Assembly: GCA_947365915.1 (NCBI GenBank)
Contig: CANAXT010000003.1
Coordinates: 1 to 61,370 of the forward strand
Direction: 5' to 3'
Length of the DNA stretch: 61,370 nucleotides
DNA from: an uncultured Mycoplasmatota bacterium
GTDB taxonomy: Bacteria; Bacillota_I; Bacilli_A; RF39; UBA660
In this document: one piece after another, positions 6,265 to 58,318 of the stretch
Layout: the number at the start of each line of letters is the position of its first letter
Position numbering within the stretch: the first letter of the stretch is position 1
Notes under the pieces: model-generated
The model's database searches: none
What the model saw: the letters and a program-made list of their open reading frames with translations, nothing else
What the model was told of the DNA's origin: nothing
Position numbers and translations under genes: made by a program

Positions 6265-6293
6265 TTTTTCAAAAAAAACTAGATATCTAGTTT
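6265..6293 (-). terminator. Intrinsic terminator after the split PD-(D/E)XK gene
   Basis: On the minus strand, AAACUAGAUAUCUAGUUU palindrome followed by a U-run. Overlaps the stop codon at 6292-6294. Confidence 0.6.
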
Positions 6294-7929
6294 ATCTTAC
6301 AATGCAAGTTTTTTCACAAAATACGATTGCATATGTTGTGATGTTTTTTACTTGATCTAGTTTTAATTCTTGATAGTATTCTTTCTCTTTCATTTGATTT
6401 ATTGCTTTTTCTGCTTCTTTTTCCATAACTTCCAATGTGTCCGCAATTTTAATTTCAATAATGATTCCTATACTTCTGTCTACTTTTTCAATTAATAAAT
6501 CATATCTTCCAATTCCTGCTTCTCTATTTGATTTTACGATAAATAATTCATTTGAGAATATTGAAAATAGGCCTAGTAAGTAACCATGGTAAAAGACTTC
6601 TTTTTGATCATGATAGGATCCTCTTAATAACAAACTATTTAAAAATTCTTCTATTTTTTGTTTTTCATCATGTAATACAGCTTCTCTAAATTGAGAGAGT
6701 TTTTTGTTTACATCAAATCCTACTGTCATTTCCTTTATAATTTTTATAAATTCTTCTTTTACTTCTTTGTTTGGAATTCTAAAATATTCTTCGATTTCGT
6801 TATATTTATTTTTAATACTTTTATCATATGTTAAATAGCCTGATGCCAATAATAAATTAAAAATCACTTCTCCATTTTCTATGTTGTCCGTTAAGTCTTA
6901 GAATGTTATCATGTTGTTATAAGCAAATGTAATACTTTCTCCTAGTATTAGTTTTTCGATTTCTATTTTATTTTCTTCATTTGTTTCTTTTAAGATTTGT
7001 TTAATTAATGCGTTGTCTGAAGTATTGAACCAGTAAGAAATGACTTTTTTATCTTGGACATAGTTTAAGATACTCCATGGGTTATAAATTGCTGCTCCTC
7101 CAAAGTTATATCCATTGTAATATTCTTTGATATTTTGAGTGAGTTCTAGCCCATAATCGTTTAATAATTCTTTTGTTTCTGATTCCGTAAATCCAAAATA
7201 TTCGTTATATTGTTCACTCATGATATCATAAATTTTCGGGTTATTAAATCCACTAAAAATACTTTCTTTACTGACTCTTGTGATTCCTGTTAGAATTCCC
7301 ATTTTTAAGTTTTCGTTTCCTTTTAGGCTACTTGAAAATACGCCTCGAATTAGGCTCATCACTTCTTCATATATATGATTGACATAAGAATTCACAATTG
7401 GAGCATCGTATTCATCGATTAAGATAATGACTCTTTCTTCATGATATCGATATAGCCAAGCAGATAAAAAATTTATAGCTTGGGTGTAATCATCTTCTGT
7501 TCCAAGTTCTCCCTTAATAATTTCGAATTTTCTTTTTTCTTCTTCATCTAATACTTCTTTTACATAACTTTTTTCTGTATATAACTTAGCTATCATAATT
7601 TTGAATTGATTTAATACTTGTTCATATGTATTTCTCTTTAATTCTTTAAAATCAACATGAATGACTGGATATTTTCCACATTCTTTCATGTATTCTGAAG
7701 ATTCTATATATAATCCTTTAAATAATTCTTTTTCTTTTTTGTCAATGTTAAAGAAGCTGTCAATCATAGATAATAGTAAAGTTTTTCTAAATCTTCTAGG
7801 TCTGAGAAATATAGAAACTAAAGGTTTATTATATAGTATTTCTTCTATTACCTTCGTCTTATCTACATAATAATTATTATTTTCAATTAGCCTTCTAAAA
7901 TTATCTTCTCCTATTGGTACTGGTCTCAT
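6292..7929 (-). pseudogene. AAA-ATPase-like / PD-(D/E)XK (PDDEXK_9-type) protein interrupted by one in-frame TAA (6898-6900)
   Basis: ORFs 6898-7929 and 6292-6867 are in the same frame, separated only by a TAA. The intact paralog (48405-50045) has CAA (Gln) at the aligned codon ('MITFQDL' vs 'MITF*DL'). Long identical runs are shared, e.g. 'GNENLKMGILTGITRVSKESIFSGFNNP'. Confidence 0.8.
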
Positions 7930-7985: not shown

Positions 7986-8168
7986 AAAAAAAAAGCCCAA
8001 AAGATCGGCGCTCGTAACGATAAAAACCTGATCTCCCAGGTGGGTATCACAGAATCGATATCAGGAGTCCTGTACTGTGTACAAGCATTCAACAACAACC
8101 GATTCATTAGATTCCCAATCGTTATAATTAGTAGGTTTTTCAATAAAAGCAAACCATATCTTTTAGGC
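7986..8168 (-). ncRNA. Candidate ~180-nt stable sRNA (6S-like architecture); identity unconfirmed
   Basis: Has its own promoter (see next feature). The 5' end GCCUAAAAGAU (8168-8158) pairs with the 3' end AUCUUUUGGGC (8005-7995), followed by U9. Internal helices include CACAG/CUGUG, CAGG-ACU-CCUG and AAAAACCU/AGGUUUUU. No RBS-preceded ORF. Confidence 0.4.
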
Positions 8169-8174
8169 AATTTC

Positions 8175-12493: not shown

Positions 12494-12703
12494 AAAAACG
12501 TCCCTAAGTTTAAAACTTAAGGACGAAAGTATCGCGGTGCCACCTTATTTTATTGTATAAAACAATACGCTTGGTTCTTTTAACGCAAGAAGTACGGTTA
12601 TTTTACGTTTAGTGTCTTTCTAAAGTATCCTTCCGAATGTTTTCACCTTAATCATTCTCTCTTTGGGAAGTGATTTCTTTTTACTCTTCTAAACAAATAA
12701 TAT
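12494..12703 (-). promoter_or_regulatory. T-box leader of the hisS-aspS operon
   Basis: On the minus strand: AGAGA bulge, T-box sequence AAGGUGGCACCGCG (12533-12546), then a 13-bp terminator CGUCCUUAAGUUU/AAACUUAGGGACG plus U6 (12494-12526). The specifier region contains GACAC (12612-12616). Confidence 0.85.
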
Positions 12704-21593: not shown

Positions 21594-21670
21594 TGGTAGC
21601 GACGAGTGGATTCGAACCACCGACCTACTGGGTATGAACCAGTTGCTCTAGCCAACTGAGCTACATCGCC
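21594..21670 (-). tRNA. tRNA-Met (anticodon CAU), elongator-type
   Basis: 77 nt: GGCGAUGUAGCUCAGUUGGCUAGAGCAACUGGUUCAUACCCAGUAGGUCGGUGGUUCGAAUCCACUCGUCGCUACCA. Folds as a cloverleaf with encoded CCA. The anticodon stem lacks the initiator 3xG-C feature; tRNA-Ile2 (lysidine) is not excluded. Confidence 0.85.
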
Positions 21671-27397: not shown

Positions 27398-27443
27398 AAA
27401 ACAGTATCACTTTTTTGTGCTATAAAATAGTGATACTGTTTTT
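27398..27443. terminator. Bidirectional hairpin between convergent genes
   Basis: AAAACAGTATCACT ... AGTGATACTGTTTT: a 12-14-bp stem flanked by A/T runs. Overlaps the last codons of the minus-strand gene. Confidence 0.6.
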
Positions 27444-27991
27444 GAAAATTCATATAAAATAATATTACTTTTATTGACTGCTATGCTTTTTCCCATAGCT
27501 TTTCCACCTATTGTTAGGGCTGCTATAATCGCTGTTACAAGTAAACTTATAATTAGTGGATCTATGTTCATAGAACTTGAAATCGTAATGGATAAAATTG
27601 CTCCTGTTGATCCTGATATAATTCCACAGATGTCTCCAATGACATCGTTACAAAATGAGGAAACTTTGTCTGCATTTTTTTTGAATTTCACAGCAATACT
27701 AGCTCCTCTTACTTTTCTAGACGCCATAGAGTGAAATGGGGTTTCATCAGCTGCGGTTACAGCAACTCCAATCATATCAAATAGAATTCCTAGTGCAATA
27801 AAAGCAATTAAAATAATGATTCCAATTATAATATTTACTTTAGGCATTACAGTTTCTGATAATAGCGAAAAAGCAATAGACAAAGTGAATGCGATTATAG
27901 ATATTTTTAAAACCCATTTATAGTCAATTAATTTTTTTTCTTTTTTTAGTTTTTTATTTTTTTTTAGTTCATCAATATATCTTCCCATCAT
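27407..27991 (-). CDS. Four-TM membrane protein with a DxxxD motif; OapA-like (OLE-associated protein A) candidate
   Basis: ~194 aa starting 'MMGRYID' (GAGGTG SD). Four hydrophobic helices. 'FCNDVIGDICG' lies in helix 3. Positioned directly downstream of and co-oriented with the large ncRNA candidate. Confidence 0.5.
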   Translation of the reverse strand: MMGRYIDELKKNKKLKKEKKLIDYKWVLKISIIAFTLSIAFSLLSETVMPKVNIIIGIIILIAFIALGILFDMIGVAVTAADETPFHSMASRKVRGASIAVKFKKNADKVSSFCNDVIGDICGIISGSTGAILSITISSSMNIDPLIISLLVTAIIAALTIGGKAMGKSIAVNKSNIILYEFSKTVSLFYSTKK

Positions 27992-28019
27992 ACACCTCAA
28001 AATACAAAAAAAATGGCTA

Positions 28020-28605
28020 TTCATATAGTAAACTTTACGTCTTAGGTCAAGTAGGATTTCCCTTACTTCAAACTTTTCCGTTACCAGAAAAGGGGTTCCC
28101 CATTACAGAAGTAAATATACCGTCACCGAATATATGACTTGATTACCACTGAGTACGCACTGCAATCCCATATGAATAGACACTCTAGGAGATTTCCTCA
28201 ACAATTCGATTTATTATTAGTTCCCTTTTGCAAGTATTGTTTCATATTGCAATCATTTAGTTTGGTCGGCCAATCAAATTAAAATCGTTCAATAATTCCC
28301 AAATACTCACTCAGGACAAGCTACACTACTCGTAACTTATCATCACATAGTAGGTTTAATCCTAAGTCGTCACTTCTCCATCAACTTTCGTGTATAGGGA
28401 AATAACAAGGTTAGGTCTCCAAGATGGAAGGGTCGTTTCTGTATGCCATTACAGTCGCCCGGCCATCTATACCTCCCAGCATCCACCCCAAACTGGGCGT
28501 AAGAAGCAGACACCAGAAGTTTCACAGATATGCTCTTTAGTGACTTTTTAGTTCCACCTTCATAATAATCGAAATTGACTAGAATAATGTGCCATTTCAA
28601 TTCAT
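28020..28605 (-). ncRNA. Large (~585 nt) structured ncRNA candidate; OLE-like by size and context
   Basis: No credible ORF. Strong promoter at 28613-28642. G+C is ~50% (28381-28500) and ~37% (28021-28140) by hand count, in an AT-rich context. Several complementary segments, including a 10-bp helix 28017-28026/28170-28179. Confidence 0.55.
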
Positions 28606-28612
28606 GTTATCC

Positions 28613-48404: not shown

Positions 48405-50045
48405 TTAATTTCTTACAATACAAGTTTTTTCACAAAATACGATTGCATATTCTAAAATGTTTTTTACTTGATCTAGTTTTAATTCTTGATAGTATTCTTT
48501 TTCTTTCATTTGGTTTAAGGCCTTTATAGCTAATTCTTCCATCTCTTCTAATGTGCTCGCTATTTTAATTTCGATAATCATTCCAATACTTCTATCTATT
48601 CTTTCAATCAGTAAATCATATCTTCCAATTCCTGCTTCTCGATTTGATTTTACAATAAAGTTTTTGTTAATAAATCCAGTAAATAGTCCTAGTGCATAAC
48701 CATGATAAAACATTTCTTTGGCATCATGATAACTCATACTTAATAACTGCGCATTAATGTATTTTTCTATTTTTTCTTTTTCATTGTTTAAAAAGAACTT
48801 TAAGAAATGGACTTGTTTTTCTAAGTCTTCTTTATTGATAGTTTCTGTTATTATTTTTATGAATTCTTCTTTTACTTCTTTGTTTGGTATTTTAAAGTAA
48901 TTGATTGATTTATCGGTTAGTTCATCGTTAATGCTTTTGTCATATGTTAGGTACCCTGATGCAAGTAATAGGTTAAATATGACATGTTTATTGTTTATGT
49001 TATTTTGTAAATCTTGAAATGTAATCATGTTATCATAAGTAAATGATATACTTTCTCCTAGTATTAGTTTTTCAATTTCTATTTTGTTTTCTTCACTTGT
49101 TTCCTTTAATATTTGCTTAATTAAAGCATTATCCGAAGTATTAAACCAATAAGGAATGACTTTTTTATGCAGTGCATAGTTTAAGATACTCCATGGGTTA
49201 TAGATGGCTGTTCCTCCAAAATTATATCCGTTATAGTATTCTTTGATATTTTGGGTAAGTTCTAGTCCATAGTAGTTTAATAATTCTTTGGTTTCATCTT
49301 CGGTAAATCCAAAATATTCATTATATTGTTCACTCATGATATCAAATATTAATGGGTTATTAAATCCACTAAAGATACTTTCTTTACTGACTCTTGTAAT
49401 TCCTGTTAAGATTCCCATTTTTAGGTTTTCATTTCCTTTTAGGCTGCTTGAGAATACGCCTCTCATTAGGCTCATCACTTCTTCATATATATGATTGACA
49501 TAAGAGTTTGTAATTGGAGCATCATATTCGTCAATTAAGATAATGACTTTTTCTTTATGATATCTGAATAACCATAATGATAATAAGTTGATCGCTTGTG
49601 TGTAATCATCTTTGGTTGCTTGCTCGTTTTTTATTAATTCAAATTTTCTGTTTTCTGCTTCATTTAAAACTTCTTTGACATATTCTTTTTCTGTAAATAG
49701 TTTTGACATCATAATTTTAAATTGATTGAGTACTTCTTCATAAGTATTTCGTTTTAACTCTTTGAAATCTACATGAATGACTGGGTATTTAGAGCATTCT
49801 TTCATGTATTCTGATTTTTCAATATATAGTCCTTTAAATAGTTCTTTTTCTTTTTTATCAATGTTAAAAAAACTATCTAGCATAGAAAGTAATAGTGTTT
49901 TCCCGAATCTTCTAGGTCTAGGAAATAAAACGACTAGATTATTATTATATAGTATTTCTTCTATGACTTTTGTTTTATCTACATAATAATCGTTATTTTC
50001 AATTAATCGTCTAAAATTGTCTTCTCCTATTGGTATTGGTTTCAT
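48405..50045 (-). CDS. AAA-ATPase-like domain / PD-(D/E)XK nuclease (PDDEXK_9-type) protein, intact copy
   Basis: 546 aa starting 'MKPIPIGEDNF' (SD AGAGGTG). N-terminal P-loop-like 'PRRFGKTLLLS' and 'ILIDEYD'. C-terminal 'GIGRYDLLIE...IIEIK' nuclease core. Confidence 0.8.
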   Translation of the reverse strand: MKPIPIGEDNFRRLIENNDYYVDKTKVIEEILYNNNLVVLFPRPRRFGKTLLLSMLDSFFNIDKKEKELFKGLYIEKSEYMKECSKYPVIHVDFKELKRNTYEEVLNQFKIMMSKLFTEKEYVKEVLNEAENRKFELIKNEQATKDDYTQAINLLSLWLFRYHKEKVIILIDEYDAPITNSYVNHIYEEVMSLMRGVFSSSLKGNENLKMGILTGITRVSKESIFSGFNNPLIFDIMSEQYNEYFGFTEDETKELLNYYGLELTQNIKEYYNGYNFGGTAIYNPWSILNYALHKKVIPYWFNTSDNALIKQILKETSEENKIEIEKLILGESISFTYDNMITFQDLQNNINNKHVIFNLLLASGYLTYDKSINDELTDKSINYFKIPNKEVKEEFIKIITETINKEDLEKQVHFLKFFLNNEKEKIEKYINAQLLSMSYHDAKEMFYHGYALGLFTGFINKNFIVKSNREAGIGRYDLLIERIDRSIGMIIEIKIASTLEEMEELAIKALNQMKEKEYYQELKLDQVKNILEYAIVFCEKTCIVRN

Positions 50046-50121
50046 GGAATCACCTCTAATTTTATTATACGTGAATCTTTTCATTTTCACAAGATAAAAA
50101 AAAACGTTTCACACGTCTTCT

Positions 50122-50442
50122 TTAGCGTTTTACATATTGTGTTGGCTGCTCTAATGTTTCTTCTTTTTCAGTTAATAAATTTGATAGTTCTCTTAGTTCT
50201 TCTAAAGACATAGATTCTATTAGCATGCTAGCTGTATCGACTTGTTCTGCTTGTGCTACTATATGTTCATGTATGGCAGGAAATAGTGTGGCTTCTGATA
50301 TGGTTAAGCATAGAGATGATGCGAGTGTTGCTCCTGCTCCTATTCCTCCTTTTTTGATTCCATTTGCTGATGTTGTAGTTACTGGAGTTCCAACAGTTGA
50401 AAGTCCAGTTCCAAATGCAGTAGTAAATCCTAATGTTCCCAT
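50122..50442 (-). CDS. Small Gly/Thr/Ala-rich protein with an acidic helical C-terminus
   Basis: 106 aa starting 'MGTLGFTTAFGTGLS' (SD AAAGGAG lies inside the end of the upstream ORF). No family recognised. Confidence 0.45.
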   Translation of the reverse strand: MGTLGFTTAFGTGLSTVGTPVTTTSANGIKKGGIGAGATLASSLCLTISEATLFPAIHEHIVAQAEQVDTASMLIESMSLEELRELSNLLTEKEETLEQPTQYVKR

Positions 50443-50446
50443 ATTT

Positions 50447-51238
50447 TTATGCTCCTTTCTTTGTATATTGTTTTTGTTTTTCTGTTTCAATCGCTGTAAT
50501 CATTTCTCTCATTTGTCTTAATTGTTCTAATGTGGTAATACAAGATGCAATTTCTTCTTTTTTTGGTAGTGTTGTTTGTTCTAGTAATGGAGATATGGCT
50601 TTTCCCGCTTCTCCATATTTTTGAACACTTTTTTTGTTTTTTTGGTATTGTATTTTTTCTAGTTGTTCTTTTCTTATTTGAATTCTTAAAATATTATAGT
50701 TTTGTAGGTTGATACATTCAAAGTTGATTAGAACACTAACTCCTTGTAAGCATAGACAAATAAGTGCGATTAAGTTTGGTATTCCTGTAAATAATTGCAT
50801 TCCAATGATTGCGATGATACTTTTGATTCCATTTAAGATGATATCGTTTTGATGAATTTTTTTGTTTTGTTCTAGATAGTATAATGTTTGGTTTACGTTA
50901 TTCATATCTAAGTGATAATTCCTATTTTTTTCTTGAGCAATTTCTCTTCTAAATCTTAGTTTTTCTTTTTGATAGTAAGAGATGATCCATTTTTGTTCTT
51001 CTAGATTTTCTTTGGAATCTTCTTGCTTTTTCTTCCATCGTTTTGGAATGATTTTAGATATGAGACTTGTTTTGTTTAATGCTTTTTTTAATTTTCGATC
51101 TATCATTTTGTCATTTAAATGAATGGCTAGTTTGGTAAATGGTTTTAGTAGTTTATATTTGATTTTTTCTACTATAAATACCATTTTTTGAAATTGTCTA
51201 GCTCCACATCGCTCGTAAAATTCTAAACGCTCCATCAT
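50447..51238 (-). CDS. Hypothetical two-TM protein
   Basis: 263 aa. Central hairpin of two hydrophobic helices flanked by charged helical regions. Confidence 0.5.
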   Translation of the reverse strand: MMERLEFYERCGARQFQKMVFIVEKIKYKLLKPFTKLAIHLNDKMIDRKLKKALNKTSLISKIIPKRWKKKQEDSKENLEEQKWIISYYQKEKLRFRREIAQEKNRNYHLDMNNVNQTLYYLEQNKKIHQNDIILNGIKSIIAIIGMQLFTGIPNLIALICLCLQGVSVLINFECINLQNYNILRIQIRKEQLEKIQYQKNKKSVQKYGEAGKAISPLLEQTTLPKKEEIASCITTLEQLRQMREMITAIETEKQKQYTKKGA

Positions 51239-51314
51239 TTTTCCCCCTTTTTATTGATGGTTATGATAACACAAAAAAATGGATTCGTCAAATTTTGAAT
51301 CCATTGTGATGATT

Positions 51315-51947
51315 TTAGAATAGTAGTAGTGGTAAAATATAGAAAGTAACAAGTAGAGTTCCTGTAATGGTTGTTAAGAATACGTAAGGTAATTTATTTT
51401 TGTTTACGGTTGTTATTTCTGTCATATTTTGGTATAGAATGGTTAGATACAGTATTGTAGTTAAAACTATGATTAATAAAGCGAATTTGATGGAAATGAA
51501 TAGGAATAGTATGGTAATGAGCTCTAAAATTGTTGGGATGATCGATGTGATTCCAATCATTATAAATACAGTTTTTATGTCTAGTTTAGTTTTGCTGATT
51601 GGTCCTAGTAATAGGTACATAATGGTTCCTATCATGATTATGTTTACAATACTAAAGAATGTTCCTTGTAGGAATAGTTTTAAAAATTGGTTGTTTTGTG
51701 GTAAGAATGTGGTTAAAAAGTTGGTTGTTTCTTTTGTGATACTATAAAGTAGTATTCCTGATATGATGGCATTTATGAGTAATAGGATCAATGCGAATCC
51801 AAAGTTTTCTATTTTTGTGTTGTTTTTGATGGTATCAATTGGTTTTGTGAATATTTCTTTTGCGATGGTTGTAAATAAGTTTATGTAGTCTTTTTTACAG
51901 AGGTGTCCTTCTTCTAGTGGTTTCCCACATTTTGTACAATATTTCAT
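51315..51947 (-). CDS. Zinc-ribbon protein with a Yip1-like multi-TM domain
   Basis: 210 aa. N-terminal 'CTKCGKPLEEGHLC', then 4-5 TM helices. Confidence 0.6.
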   Translation of the reverse strand: MKYCTKCGKPLEEGHLCKKDYINLFTTIAKEIFTKPIDTIKNNTKIENFGFALILLLINAIISGILLYSITKETTNFLTTFLPQNNQFLKLFLQGTFFSIVNIIMIGTIMYLLLGPISKTKLDIKTVFIMIGITSIIPTILELITILFLFISIKFALLIIVLTTILYLTILYQNMTEITTVNKNKLPYVFLTTITGTLLVTFYILPLLLF

Positions 51948-51963
51948 TATTTTTTTCCTCCTT

Positions 51964-53040
51964 TTAATATCTAGAAAAGTAGTCTACTAAGTTATCCATA
52001 TCTATGATGTTGTCTGTTTGATAGGTTGCATTCATGTAAGTGTAGCTAGTTGATTCTTTGGTTTGTTGTATGTTGAAAAAGTCTGTATATTTTATTTGGT
52101 ATTTGTAGTTTGCTTTGAACCGAAATTCTAAGTATCCAAGTTCGTTTAGTTTGACGTTTTCTAGTGTGATTTTGGTAAATTCAATATTGGTTAATGTGTT
52201 GTAAGCGTTTTTTAAGTTGTCTTTTAGTTGGTTTTGTTTTTTTTCTAGATGTTTATTTTCTAATGGTGTTTCTTTTAGTATGCTGTCATAAAGGTTTGTT
52301 AGTTCTTTTTTGATTGTTTTTTCTATTTTGGTTTGTTCTTCTTTTTTGATCATGTCTAGTGAAAGGTGTGTTGTATATTTAGTTTTGTATGTATTTGGTG
52401 TGATTTCGTCTTCTATTGTGTACCCGTTTGGTAATGTGATTTCTATTTTTGTTGGTGCTTTTAGTACTTGGTTTAAGGTATAGATATCACTGTTGTCTGT
52501 TTTTTCTAGGTATTTTTTTTGTACTTTTTTTCCTGCGTATGTTATTTTTGAGTTTTTAGGTACAATGATTGAAAAGTCTTTTACGATGTTGTTTTCTATG
52601 TCGATTTTCCACTTTTTTAGGGATAAAAATGGTTGTTTTTTTAGGGTAATTGTTTCTTGGTTTGTTCCATATTGGATGGTTACGTTTGCTTGTGTTTTAT
52701 TGCGATTTACGTTTATGATTTTGAAGTCTTTGATGTTTGAATATGGTTTTGATAGGGATTTTATTGTGGTTTTGTTGATGAATGTTTTGTCTCCTTTGAT
52801 ATTTAAGTAGTGATTTATATTTTTTTGTTGTGTCATTGCTTTAAAGTAGTTTTTGGCGATTGTTTTTGGAGAGTTTAAATAGCTAAATAGTCCAATAGTA
52901 AGTATGATTACAGCTATTATTGAAGTTACAATTGTGATTGTTTTTTTTGTTTGTTTGTTTAGTTTTGTGTATTTTGTTCCACAGTTAGAACAGTATTTGT
53001 CTCCTTTGTTTTTTTGGGTTCCACATTTACTACAATACAT
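51964..53040 (-). CDS. Zinc-ribbon, single-TM protein with an extracytoplasmic domain
   Basis: 358 aa. 'YCSKCGTQ...YCSNCG', then TM 'ITIVTSIIAVIILTIGLF'. Confidence 0.6.
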   Translation of the reverse strand: MYCSKCGTQKNKGDKYCSNCGTKYTKLNKQTKKTITIVTSIIAVIILTIGLFSYLNSPKTIAKNYFKAMTQQKNINHYLNIKGDKTFINKTTIKSLSKPYSNIKDFKIINVNRNKTQANVTIQYGTNQETITLKKQPFLSLKKWKIDIENNIVKDFSIIVPKNSKITYAGKKVQKKYLEKTDNSDIYTLNQVLKAPTKIEITLPNGYTIEDEITPNTYKTKYTTHLSLDMIKKEEQTKIEKTIKKELTNLYDSILKETPLENKHLEKKQNQLKDNLKNAYNTLTNIEFTKITLENVKLNELGYLEFRFKANYKYQIKYTDFFNIQQTKESTSYTYMNATYQTDNIIDMDNLVDYFSRY

Positions 53041-53082
53041 GATGTACTCCTTTCATTGGTTTCGTTAAAAATAATTTTCTTG

Positions 53083-53111
53083 AAAACGGCGTTCTCAACG
53101 TACGCCGTTTT
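53083..53111. terminator. GC-rich hairpin terminator ~140 nt downstream of the pilin-like gene
   Basis: AAAACGGCG-11 nt-CGCCGTTTT. Confidence 0.6.
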
Positions 53112-53252
53112 CATATGTCTTTTTTTAGTTTTTTCAAATTAATATTATTTAATCTTCGTTGTTGTGTTCTTTCGTTCATGGTTGTCCGTGCTTTCGTTTT
53201 TTCTTCTTTTTTGGTACTCGTTTACAACAGAGAATTGCACACTCCGTAACGA

Positions 53253-54779
53253 TTAACCGAGCACTACCACCCGGAACGAGATATTACTGCCCGCAACACC
53301 ATTGCTCCAATTGAAGCAGAACACTCCTGCATCCGTCGTACCGCTATAATGCCCGCCACGCATGAACCAGGGAGCACCCGAAACGACGAAGAGGGCGTAA
53401 TCGGAATACCATCCGCTCGTCTCGCTTAGCGCATGTCCATAACATATTCCTGAGTTACATGCCGTTGTTGCATCTATACTTGTATAATTATCATAATACT
53501 TACTTGCTGGTAAACTACTAAATCCTGCATTCTTTATTGTACTATTATATACTCCCATTACGTATTCCCACGCTCCTCCACTCATATCATATACTCCATA
53601 TATTGTCCCACTTGTACTCGCGCCTGTTCCTCCTGGACTTACATTATATGCATTTGTACATGATGATACATTTCCTGAGCTTGGCGCTCCTGCACTACAC
53701 CCTGTTACATAGTTACTATTATTATTTATATATACTTCTTTGTTGGCTCCACTATAACTACTATTTCCATATTTTCCATATTTGCTTTGACTTAAGTATG
53801 CTACTGCTCCCCATTCACTATTCTTCATCATATGTGCATCCGCACTTGTACTTATTCCATATGAGTTCCCTGACGCACTGAATTTCTGCGCTGTTGCAAA
53901 CTGTGTACTTACATTTTGACTTCTTAGTGAATTTACATTTGGTTTTATCGTTGGGGTACTTGCACTTCCTGTTGTCTCAAATTTTCCTACCCATATTCCT
54001 GCTAATTCTTGTCCTCCGAAATTGAAAGCTGGATGAATGAGATAATTTGCAGTTGGGCTTGTCTTATCTTTTTTTATAAAGTTGACTTTGATTTCTCCTG
54101 GAGTTTCTGCTGTTCCTCCTGCATAGTTTGCTATATTCACATAATCATATTCATATCTTGGAATCCATACAAAATAGGCATCGATTTTGTCTTCTGGAAT
54201 TGGTGTTCCAACAGACACATTTCTGTAATCTGGAGCCACTGCTGCTGCATTTGCCCACATCCCTGTATTATAGTCATACCATTGATTATTTCCTGCTTCA
54301 TTGTTTTTATCAGCTCTAATCCAAGTTGTTCCATTCCATTTGATTGGGATTAATCCGTTTGATAGTGTTGGAACTTCTGCTCCTGATTTGTCCATATTTT
54401 CTGGTGGTTTTGTTTCTTTACAACTTGCTTCTGTATATTTGTAATCATATTGACTATATACTGCGTTATAACCAATTACCACACAACCATTCATGGTACT
54501 TTCATCTCTTGGGTCTTTGATTTCTTTTCCGGTTATGTATCCACCTTTTATGAGTTCTGTCAGTTCTAGATAATAGGCTCCACTTTCTGGTAACATACTG
54601 GCATGATCTACTCCCCATTTTCTTGCGTTTTCTTCAATTAATCCAACTTGTCTATCATATAATTTCTTTTTTGAATTTCTAATTGATTTATTGACATTTG
54701 GAAATATAATTAAGGCAATGAGTCCTAAAATGATAATCACACCTAATAGTTCTGTTAATGTAAAACCTTTTTTTTTCAT
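53253..54779 (-). CDS. Modular type IV pilin-like protein: prepilin N-terminus fused to an FGE-sulfatase/C-type-lectin-like domain
   Basis: Starts 'MKKKGFTLTELLGVIIILGLIAL' (class III signal, Glu+5) with SD AGGAGTG. C-terminal 'GGAWEYVMG ... RGG...ISFRVVVLG'. The upstream 34 codons in the ORF track lack support. Confidence 0.7.
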   Translation of the reverse strand: MKKKGFTLTELLGVIIILGLIALIIFPNVNKSIRNSKKKLYDRQVGLIEENARKWGVDHASMLPESGAYYLELTELIKGGYITGKEIKDPRDESTMNGCVVIGYNAVYSQYDYKYTEASCKETKPPENMDKSGAEVPTLSNGLIPIKWNGTTWIRADKNNEAGNNQWYDYNTGMWANAAAVAPDYRNVSVGTPIPEDKIDAYFVWIPRYEYDYVNIANYAGGTAETPGEIKVNFIKKDKTSPTANYLIHPAFNFGGQELAGIWVGKFETTGSASTPTIKPNVNSLRSQNVSTQFATAQKFSASGNSYGISTSADAHMMKNSEWGAVAYLSQSKYGKYGNSSYSGANKEVYINNNSNYVTGCSAGAPSSGNVSSCTNAYNVSPGGTGASTSGTIYGVYDMSGGAWEYVMGVYNSTIKNAGFSSLPASKYYDNYTSIDATTACNSGICYGHALSETSGWYSDYALFVVSGAPWFMRGGHYSGTTDAGVFCFNWSNGVAGSNISFRVVVLG

Positions 54780-54803
54780 TTGGTTCACTCCTATTCTTAT
54801 TTC

Positions 54804-54832
54804 ATTATAGTATAAATTTTTAATTTCAGCAA
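54804..54832 (-). promoter_or_regulatory. Promoter of the pilin-like gene
   Basis: Minus strand reads TTGCTG, 17 nt, TATAAT. Confidence 0.5.
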
Positions 54833-54841
54833 TATATTTTA

Positions 54842-54863
54842 CAAAAAAAAGAGGCTTCCCTCT
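54842..54863 (-). terminator. Terminator after the small peptide genes
   Basis: On the minus strand, AGAGG-GAAG-CCUCU followed by U8. Confidence 0.55.
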
Positions 54864-54865
54864 TT

Positions 54866-55000
54866 TTAGTAAAAGAAACATGAACCTAGTATGATTGCAA
54901 GTAAGATGTAAAGTACAATGATAATTACAAATCCGTTGTTATTGTTGCAGCAGTAGTTTTGTGTTGATCCTACGTTATTGCAAGAATTGTTGCATGCCAT
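54866..55000 (-). CDS. YjcZ-like small hydrophobic peptide (44 aa)
   Basis: Not in the ORF track. AAAAGGAGG SD then ATG. Encodes MACNNSCNNVGSTQNYCCNNNNGFVIIIVLYILLAIILGSCFFY: a Cys/Asn-rich head plus one TM helix. Confidence 0.6.
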   Translation of the reverse strand: MACNNSCNNVGSTQNYCCNNNNGFVIIIVLYILLAIILGSCFFY

Positions 55001-56547: not shown

Positions 56548-57592
56548 CTAATTTTTTATATCAATCATTTCTAAATCCTTAATACTTTCCAAATAATGAA
56601 GTTCCACTTCACTTGGTTTTAAAGCCATTCTATTTTTATATTTATTATATTCCTTTTTTGCATGATTTAAAGCTTCTTCATGACTAACTTTGCCAGCATC
56701 TTTTAATATATCTTTCCTATTCATTGTTAAGAAATAGTTTAATTCTTTAATCCAATCTTGCATAGTCATTGTATTTTCTTCGATTGCTTGTAACTCTGCA
56801 TAATCTAAATACATAGAAACAATTCTATTTAAAATATCTAATTCTTTATCTGTTAAATAATTTTTAGCAATTGTAGCATCTAATAATGTTGGATAGTCTC
56901 CACTAAAAGTAGTTAACCCCATAAAATCTTTAGCGCTATTTGCTCTTTTAACTATAATCTCCGCAGCAGTGTGTCCATGTACAGCCCAGTGCCTTTTGTT
57001 TTGAACCGTTTTAAAAAATTCCTGTGTTATTTTTGATTTAGGGTCATAGTCAACAGCTGTTGCATAAATGTCCAAAATTTTTCTCCAAAAAACTTTTTCT
57101 GATGACCTTATATCGCGAATTCTTTCAAGTAATTCATCAAAATATAGTCCGCCACCTGCTCGTTTTAACCAAAAACAGCAAGAAGCCCCCACTTCTTATC
57201 TAAGTGATGGGAGTATGTCACCAAGTCATCGTTCAAAATCCTTTTGTCATATATTCAGTTAATCTCTTATTAGCCCATTTTCTAAAATTTGTACCAATAT
57301 TAGATTTTACCCTAAAGCCTATAGCCACAATCATTTCAAGATTATAATAATTCATATTGTATGATTTTCCATTTGATGCAACTGTTCGGAATTTCCGAAC
57401 AGTTGTTAATTCATCTAATTCTCCTTCTTCGAATATATGCTTTATATGTTCTGATATATTAGATTTACTAGAATTATATAATTTTACCAATTGTTCCTGA
57501 TTTAGCCATACAGTATTGTCATGCATTTTAACTTCAATATTATCATTACCATTTTTATCTTTGTAAATGACTATATTTCCATGTTCTTCCAT
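56548..57592 (-). pseudogene. RhuM-family (virulence protein RhuM-like) gene, frame-disrupted
   Basis: The N-terminal part (57233-57592) ends '...YMTKGF*'. The continuation 'LKRAGGGLYFDELLERIRDIRSSEKVF...' is in another frame (56548-57192). Confidence 0.7.
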
Positions 57593-57703: not shown

Positions 57704-58318
57704 TTAAATCATGTCATAATGGACAAACAAGCCAATTCGTAAGTCCATATTATCTTTATTAGAATCAACACTACAAGATGAATATATATCAGTAATTTTT
57801 TGATAAAATCTTCTTTCGCTAGAGCGAATATTTCTAATTCTTTCTAATGTTCTTTCAAAATAGTCTTCTCCAAAAATATAATTTGGATTTTTTAATCTTT
57901 CTTCATCCATCACTACACCGGTAATCAAATATTCCTTTAACACTTTTGTTGCCCATATTCTAAATTGTGTTGCTTTTTTGGAATTGACCCGATATCCTAC
58001 TGCGATAATCATATCTAAATTGTATATTTTAGATTTTCTTCCTCCTGTACTTTCGTCGGAAATTCCGACAGAAGTTTCTTCATTTAGTTCACCACTATTA
58101 AAAATATTATTAATATGTCCTGTTATAGTACTTCTTCCTACCCCAAACAATTCAGCAATCAAATTTTGTGTTAACCAAATATCATTATTAATTAATAGTA
58201 CATTTACTTTAATATCGTTATTATCGTCTCGATATATTAAAATATCCCATCTTTGTATTATTTCAAATAACTTATCTTCATAAGGAAAATATGATAAATA
58301 TTTTTCTATTTGTTCCAT
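57704..58318 (-). pseudogene. RhuM-family gene, 3'-truncated
   Basis: 204 aa. Homologous to the N-terminal 60% of the RhuM family and breaks off after 'ERIRNIRSSERRFYQKITDIY'. Confidence 0.6.

Follow-up and report, generated by a model that had tools for sequence, protein, structure and literature searches.

Why should a gene in a chromosome of about 30% G+C end abruptly in a G+C-rich island of rare codons? The question is raised by a contig of 61,370 nucleotides (nt) from an uncultured Mycoplasmatota bacterium (CANAXT010000003.1, assembly GCA_947365915.1), which is referred to here, at its full length, as the window. Near its end lies the gene in question, commonly referred to below as the target gene, which occupies 53253..54779 on the minus strand and encodes a variable protein of 508 aa. 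A preliminary description, made from the letters of the window alone, had likened the last part of this gene to the variable region (VR) of a diversity-generating retroelement (DGR). DGRs are systems that rewrite a ligand-binding surface through error-prone reverse transcription. In the present analysis, that reading is supported by hypervariability between strains, by an adenine bias of mismatches against the template repeat (TR) of a sister species, by the fold of the encoded domain, and by a DGR cassette in the sister species. We conclude that positions 53257-53399 (minus strand) are very probably a DGR-written VR of the target gene; that a DGR is also present and active in the genome of the window is a further step, which we consider likely with less assurance.

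An adenine-depleted tract at the 3' end of the target gene

The G+C content of 53257-53436 is 56.1%, in a contig that has 29.6% overall; a value of ~56% had been estimated earlier for the last ~180 nt of the gene, and the measurement agrees with it. Among the 180-nt windows of the contig, which average 29.6% with a standard deviation of 5.3, this one ranks highest, about 5 standard deviations above the mean, and the runner-up reaches 47.8%. The borders are steep, with 30-45% G+C no more than 20 nt upstream of 53440 and 30-35% below 53240.

The excess of G+C in the tract is an adenine deficit on the coding strand. Adenine makes up 42% of the coding strand in 13 background genes and 41% in the remainder of the target gene, as against 14% in the 143-nt core 53257-53399, the G+C content of which is 56.6%. 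Third codon positions show the same deficit: A occupies 6% of them in the VR, compared with 40% in the remainder of the gene and 49% in the background genes. Thus, an abrupt G+C-rich island of rare codons appears in this 30% G+C genome because adenine is avoided, and the same avoidance accounts for the rare codons that had been listed for the tract in the preliminary description, where the C-terminal peptide was also quoted correctly.

The VR proper (53257..53399, minus strand, 143 nt) is the part that is homologous to the TRs of the sister species, and the stop codon of the target gene (53253-53255) lies just beyond it. Its invariant, G+C-rich 3' end, TCGTTCCGGGTGGTAGTGCTCGG (53257..53279, minus strand), is a candidate initiation-of-mutagenic-homing element; this 23-mer is identical in the window, in a conspecific strain (L146, described below), in all sister VRs and in two sister TRs, and a further TR, TRb, is one base off. 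On the 5' side, the VR is continued by a G+C-rich extension of 41 nt that encodes GHALSETSGWYSD (53400..53440, minus strand; 54% G+C, 27% A), lies outside the sister-species TR and is conserved across all VR-bearing paralogs. About 16 nt past the stop codon are moderately G+C-rich as well, and these too fall outside the TR homology.

Template repeats in a sister species and differences between strains

The sister species is ~86% identical to the window species at the nucleotide level. In one of its metagenome-assembled genomes (MAGs), GCA_951801705.1, the closest homolog of the target protein (P0002, 81% identity) is found in a syntenic locus, in the order prsA, target, Zn-ribbon protein, Yip1-like protein and, farther on, RNase J, and it ends in the same G+C-rich tail. 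The 23-mer that ends both G+C-rich tails was scanned exactly against one representative genome per species, which gave 7 matches, all of them in the MAG MGBC102946 (uncultured Bacilli bacterium). Six of these sites are 3' ends of genes, namely the syntenic ortholog and five dispersed copies. The remaining one (on L128) is an A-rich non-coding copy with 33% A and AAC codons, which starts abruptly in AT-rich non-coding DNA. Downstream of it, on the same strand, follow a MutS-domain-I protein of 138 aa, a bAvd protein of 118 aa and a reverse transcriptase (RT) of 352 aa, which were recognized by Pfam (MutS_I 2.3e-13, bAvd 2e-22, RVT_1 6.8e-17); the RT carries the motifs IGNYTSQ and YMDD. This cassette occurs in at least 10 assemblies, invariably beside cofD-whiA-spoIIR-rplI-dnaB, which marks it as a stable part of the chromosome and not as a phage.

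In GCA_951801705.1, the template takes the form of a tandem array (L132 1-902) with a period of 359 bp and 2.5 copies, ended by the contig edge, which comprises TRb (short, 143 nt), TRa (long, 149 nt) and the end of a third copy. In MGBC102946, a single TR was assembled (L128 4895-5460, minus strand), preceded by a decayed 3' end of a target gene and the same spacer. The sister cassette has no intact adjacent target, only such a decayed remnant. An insertion sequence (IS)-like fragment, an open reading frame (ORF) with the motif RWKIEN, is located between the sister TR and the MutS-like gene.

Mismatches between VRs and TRs fall preferentially on template adenines. In MGBC102946, L129 carries the ortholog that corresponds in position to the window gene, and each of the 14 mismatches between its VR and TRa is at a template A (14 of 39 A, 0 of 110 non-A; p 9e-10). 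The other sister VRs have 4 to 11 non-A mismatches to the TRs, and since these cluster where the TR copies disagree, further TR variants are implied. Each VR is unique, and the non-A scaffold positions are fixed. The VR of the window belongs with the short form represented by TRb, with which it has AAT-TGG and ATC in common; its mismatches to TRb affect 21 of the 39 A and 11 of the 104 non-A positions (odds ratio 9.9, Fisher p 1.8e-7). At the scaffold positions of the core, where the sister TR is non-A, its coding strand has 1.9% A. Upstream of the VR, where the window and the ortholog are 85.4% identical, no A bias is seen (68 of 582 A and 139 of 838 non-A positions substituted). The earlier expectation of NNY codons derived from AAY template codons therefore stands with regard to the adenine-biased mismatches and fails with regard to a purely NNY pattern, as some differences are in third positions.

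A check for hypervariability among strains had been proposed, and was run with the conspecific strain L146. It was found through a homolog search with the neighbouring Zn-ribbon protein (97%-identical protein) and is represented by a Logan contig of 2,960 bp from SRR31212436, which spans 50470-53427 of the window and includes the whole VR. The two strains differ at 34 of the 143 positions of the VR (53257-53399; 23.8%), compared with 2 of 28 in the covered part of the 5' extension (53400-53427), 12 of 216 in the intergenic spacer (53041-53256; 5.6%), 2.6% in the Zn-ribbon gene (51964-53040) and 1.9% in the remainder (50470-51963); the contrast between the VR and the rest has a Fisher p of 6e-21. 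No change is seen in the scaffold codons or in the final 29 nt of the VR. The comparison favours diversification at this very locus. Nineteen of the 34 VR differences are at adenines of the sister TRb (39 A; p 5e-5) and 6 more are at positions where other copies of the sister TR have A, which leaves 9, 8 of them at third codon positions. The window has AAT-TGG where L146 has AGC-CAC.

Strains of the sister species differ in a similar place. L121 and L129 are identical for ~4 kb downstream and show 67 differing columns in the last ~300 nt of the ortholog (L121 5118-5420; L129 1-326). At this same locus, L121 has the short form of the VR and L129 the long form, and a 21-nt indel (loss of TACNSGIC) separates them just upstream of the VR. 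These differences in length class and the indel suggest either that different TR copies were used or that paralogs recombined.

Alternative explanations and a proposed mechanism

Several observations weigh against the proposal that the VR was written by a DGR that still resides in this genome. There is no TR, RT or Avd in the 61-kb contig by blastn, tblastn or Pfam (the Pfam scan covered 46 of the 48 ORFs that are 150 aa or longer), as had been stated in advance. An 81-nt TR-compatible pattern found no match in viral contigs or representative genomes, and a scaffold-anchored pattern of 80 nt found none in the Joint Genome Institute (JGI) metagenomes. The window VR has 11 non-A mismatches to the nearest available TR, which is that of another species, and 15 of the 34 differences between strains are at non-A positions of TRb, 8 of them third codon positions. 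It follows that the cognate TR differs from TRb, that there are several variants or AAA-type codons, or that drift and recombination contribute. The differences between L121 and L129 upstream of the VR suggest that paralog recombination is at work as well. Finally, the 83 nt downstream of the window VR fold like shuffled sequences (z 0.24), and so offer no significant DNA hairpin or cruciform; such a structure just 3' of the VR occurs in BPP-1 and is not universal among DGRs.

The search for the species' own TR and RT gave a mixed outcome. No near copy of 53200-53520 was found elsewhere in the contig by blastn with word size 7. A fully degenerate TR pattern, in which A is kept and C, G and T may each be A, matched only poly-A contig ends in viral contigs, and the pattern was redesigned with fixed third-position pyrimidines. 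The 80-nt pattern recovered TRb among the loci fetched and therefore works. The 23-mer had no match in viral or metagenome contigs. An RT (P0241) was encountered on a 1.8-kb Logan contig, and a contig of 15 kb is also on record for it; it is 91% identical to the sister RT, and its DNA is 86% identical to that of the sister species, a divergence equal to that of the window. One copy of it comes from SRR31212431, a run number near that of L146 (SRR31212436). P0241 probably belongs to the window species, though it is not linked to the window genome, and on this evidence it is likely, not proven, that the species keeps a DGR cassette. The FolD protein of the window matched the Logan sample SRR23219396, in which no link to the RT was found. 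The claim that the gene is a remote target accords with the lack of a cassette on the contig and with the six VRs of the sister species, all of which are off the contig of the cassette.

It could be argued that the VR is a fossil, that is, it was written by an ancestral DGR whose TR/RT cassette has since been lost, and its sequence now evolves normally. A contig without a cassette, TR-compatible patterns without a cognate TR, and the non-adenine mismatches to the sister TR would all fit this history, and isolates of Treponema denticola have been reported with leftover targets after loss of the core DGR (PMC4891356). However, the divergence between the two conspecific strains is 9-12 times higher in the VR than in its flanks, with scaffold and 3' element identical; differences confined to the VR mean that diversification took place after the strains split, or is very recent. 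The depletion of adenine is also undiminished (1.9% A at scaffold positions against 42% A on coding strands), and samples of the same SRA series as L146 contain an RT 91% identical to that of the sister species. We therefore regard a fossil as unlikely.

Two other explanations dispense with reverse transcription altogether. Exchange of a G+C-rich cassette among pilin-like paralogs, or its horizontal acquisition, draws some support from the six paralogous 3' ends that are able to recombine in the sister species, from L121 and L129, which differ upstream of the VR by the 21-nt indel and in VR length class, and from the 41-nt G+C-rich extension outside the TR. Such mosaicism leaves unexplained the adenine-specific pattern (14/39 against 0/110; in the window, p 1.8e-7), the non-coding A-rich template copies beside RT and Avd, and unique VRs with fixed non-A scaffold positions, and we consider it very improbable as the sole cause. 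Recombination may nevertheless operate alongside retrohoming, and the 21-nt indel makes a contribution from it probable in the sister species. The second explanation attributes the composition to the amino-acid sequence itself, or to selection on a Gly/Arg/Trp-rich domain, with no retroelement involved. It is true that Gly, Arg, Ser and Val abound in the tail and that the RGG...SFRVV motifs are conserved family-wide, but in the paralog P0004 and in two distant homologs, P0064 and P0013, this domain and its motifs are encoded by tails of 36-41% G+C and 25-28% A, and amino-acid content is therefore not the cause of the anomaly. Synonymous third positions, with 6% A in the VR against 40-49% elsewhere, speak against it as well. 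With these control tails the explanation is ruled out for practical purposes, and it retains only the slightest probability.

If the VR is indeed DGR-written, its diversification would proceed as follows. A TR elsewhere in the genome would be transcribed; by analogy with the sister species, it may be sited in a chromosomal cassette (TR array, MutS-like, bAvd and RT genes) beside cofD-whiA. The RT would then copy the TR transcript, misincorporating opposite adenines, and the resulting cDNA would replace the VR, with the invariant G+C-rich 3' element serving for targeting. Scaffold codons would survive because the template avoids adenine in them. In this lineage of uncultured gut Bacilli, a single chromosomal DGR might further operate as a multi-template system, in which copies of the array could overwrite any of at least six dispersed pilin-like genes. 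We put this forward tentatively, as something short of an even chance, and it includes the notion that the same locus switches scaffold versions among strains (L121 and L129; AAT-TGG and AGC-CAC). If it is true, the lectin heads that a cell displays on its type IV filaments would be hypervariable and drawn from a combinatorial repertoire, and if the multi-TR array of the sister species also serves the window locus, it would be an uncommon route to broaden the writing of one retroelement.

The pilin-like carrier, comparable systems and the remainder of the window

The longest ORF of the target gene is 53253-54881 (minus strand). Alignments of homologs begin at the MKK-GFTL motif, and the true start is likely at 54779, at MKKKGFTLTELL, where the homologs begin with MKKKGF. 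The N-terminus bears a prepilin cleavage/methylation motif, KKG/FTLTE, followed by a hydrophobic helix (54702..54779, minus strand; Pfam N_methyl PF07963, 23.9 bits against a cut-off of 21.2). In an AlphaFold2 model built with 53 homologs (pLDDT 85.6, pTM 0.76), a long N-terminal helix (residues 8-58) is followed by a small beta sheet and a large C-terminal domain. A Foldseek search of the model against the PDB returned 6 significant matches, all of which are DGR variable proteins: TaqVP of Thermus aquaticus (5vf4, E 6.5e-10) and Mtd of a Bordetella phage (1yu0-1yu3, E 3e-5 to 1e-4); all others had E > 0.7. The C-terminal part (53256..54353, minus strand, N-terminal limit approximate) is accordingly described as a C-type-lectin (CLec)/FGE-sulfatase-like ligand-binding domain, and the model and the Foldseek matches place the VR at the C-terminus of this CLec-fold domain. 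The preliminary description had likened the ending to that of FGE-sulfatase/C-type-lectin-fold binding domains; the C-type-lectin fold is upheld by TaqVP and Mtd as the sole significant PDB matches, and the Pfam family FGE-sulfatase (PF03781) stays below threshold (16.2 bits against a cut-off of 23.3, residues 380-451 only). The likeness to FGE-sulfatase is one of fold, not of family.

The gene product thus appears to be modular, with a type IV pilin-like N-terminus and a predicted C-terminal CLec-fold domain, the last ~47 codons of which would form the ligand-binding surface. Judging from the N-terminal motif, the protein may putatively be displayed on a type IV filament. No pilus machinery or prepilin peptidase was found among the Pfam-scanned ORFs of the window.

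The target protein belongs to a very large family, with >7,900 homologs. In its closest members the C-terminus reads WYSD.A.FV.S..PWF.RGG....TT.AGVF.F....G.A....SFRVVVLG, where letters are fixed and dots hypervariable. Look-ups for exact matches to the target protein (with either start), to the adjacent Zn-ribbon protein and to P0003 gave no record. The distant members P0064 and P0013 have neither an adjacent RT nor an adenine-depleted tail; the family is therefore not uniformly DGR-targeted, and its bulk is probably not hypermutated. Distant members (L143 10001-11638 and 20708-21638; L145 149-7042) stand singly amid housekeeping genes, near other large proteins with the N_methyl motif (865-936 aa) and with no RT within 10 kb, and P0064 is identical across 15 contigs. 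The paralog P0004 (L122 10001-11563; L123 8519-10081) is located between licD and rpsL. It retains both the domain and the terminal SFRVV, with an AT-rich tail that shows no depletion of adenine and is identical in two assemblies; apparently, P0004 is not, or is no longer, a DGR target.

The system is of a known kind. Remote targets have been established, with seven in Treponema, and are restricted to non-phage DGRs (PMC5758913, PMC4891356). The DGR of Treponema denticola (TvpA family) is likewise chromosomal and non-phage, with one cassette that serves several remote targets, a CLec-fold VR at the C-terminus of the targets, and VR-only leftovers in some isolates (PMC4891356, PMC5758913). In that system, however, the accessory gene is of the HRDC type, there is only one TR, the targets are lipoproteins and one of them is adjacent to the cassette, whereas the sister cassette has MutS-like and bAvd genes, a tandem array of at least three TRs and only a decayed remnant beside it, and the targets have pilin-type N-termini. 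A small MutS-like (MSL) gene and Avd upstream of the RT are also the mark of the MSL-containing DGRs (architecture D, Wu et al. 2018), including that of Legionella pneumophila (PMC5758913). Compared with these, the present system is found in an uncultured low-G+C Bacilli host and has remote pilin-like targets, a TR that is tandemly multiplied in the sister species, and an IS fragment between TR and MSL gene. In Stenotrophomonas sp. SKA14, a DGR with two TRs and multiple VRs has been reported (PMC6642488); its DUF1566 targets lie in tandem near the cassette, whereas here the targets are dispersed, and the sister TRs form an array of 359-bp period with two length classes.

With regard to the target protein, TaqVP and Mtd (Bordetella phage BPP-1) share the CLec fold and a VR at the extreme C-terminus. 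They are 13-16% identical in sequence to it, both lack a prepilin signal and a pilin module, and Mtd is a phage tail-fibre protein encoded beside its cassette. Modular type IV pilins of monoderms, such as PilB of Streptococcus sanguinis, combine a class III signal peptide, a pilin module and a C-terminal functional or adhesive module (PMC8179133), but these modules are not CLec and are not known as hypermutated. According to a preprint, DGRs of the gut bacterium Bacteroides diversify an adhesive component of type V pili (bioRxiv 10.1101/2024.11.15.621889); that pilus is unrelated and its host belongs to the Bacteroidota, and pilus display in the present case is suggested by the N-terminal motif only. 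Type IV pili, remote targets and Firmicutes are unmentioned in that paper. The suggestion that a pilin would be an unusual DGR target seems justified, as the literature lists a 'G-type pilin' domain only in passing, among rare target domains that are 'scarcely represented' (2024 survey, PMC11661182), and a literature search that paired DGRs with type IV pilins had no DGR paper among the matches listed. The less usual features are therefore the type IV pilin-like carrier, the wholly remote targets and the multi-TR array of the sister species.

Large DGR surveys need a VR beside an RT on one contig and hence state that they miss remote targets (PMC8144416). The present locus shows that the sequence of an isolated VR is enough to recognize it, as it is depleted in adenine and rich in G+C and in rare codons, and that relatives can then provide confirmation. 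It also adds a type of carrier, since here, in a Gram-positive gut bacterium, the hypervariable lectin head is borne by a type IV pilin-like protein. This suggests that adhesion, or the recognition of receptors, might be programmable on type IV filaments.

Around the target gene, the contig is ordinary chromosome and carries aspS, hisS, topA, folD, RNase J, prsA and genes for envelope polysaccharides. A hairpin, AAAACGGCG / 11-nt loop / CGCCGTTTT (53083..53111, minus strand), lies in the spacer that separates the target gene from the one that follows; it is identical in L146 and is likely a terminator. The terminator scan did not list it, as its 11-nt loop exceeds the 3-8 nt limit of that scan; promoter and terminator scans around the target were otherwise uninformative. 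In the sister ortholog, a GTTGC-GAA-GCAAC mini-hairpin (L121 5420-5432) lies 4 nt past the VR (z -1.97), with no counterpart in the window; it contains the GCGAAGC motif, which is very stable.

Several RNA elements were detected in the window. The second G+C peak of the contig (28366-28545, 47.8%) is explained by a full-length Ornate Large Extremophilic (OLE) RNA at 27997-28611 (minus strand; 408 bits, model positions 1-616 of 616). The ORF directly downstream of it (27407-28024, 205 aa) has no Pfam match and could encode an OLE-associated protein. A 6S RNA (7990-8172, minus strand, 58 bits), a T-box leader upstream of hisS (12516-12700, minus strand, 103 bits) and a lone tRNA-Met (CAT) (21594-21670, minus strand) are also present.

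Two protein-coding genes may be interrupted. The ORFs 56548-57192 and 57704-58318 (both minus strand), ~500 nt apart, match complementary parts of the RhuM profile (69-252 and 16-112) and look like a disrupted or duplicated RhuM gene. A gene with AAA-ATPase_like and PDDEXK_9 domains is apparently split into the ORFs 6292-6867 and 6898-7929 (minus strand), and an intact copy of 561 aa is found at 48405-50090 (minus strand). Where the window has this intact copy (48.4-50.1 kb), two complete copies stand in tandem in the sister species, and the DNA of either is ~83% identical to that of the split gene. Close by, an ORF of 122 aa (50122-50490, minus strand) has a centre rich in Gly, Thr and Ala and coincides with a local rise in G+C (50227-50406, 42%).

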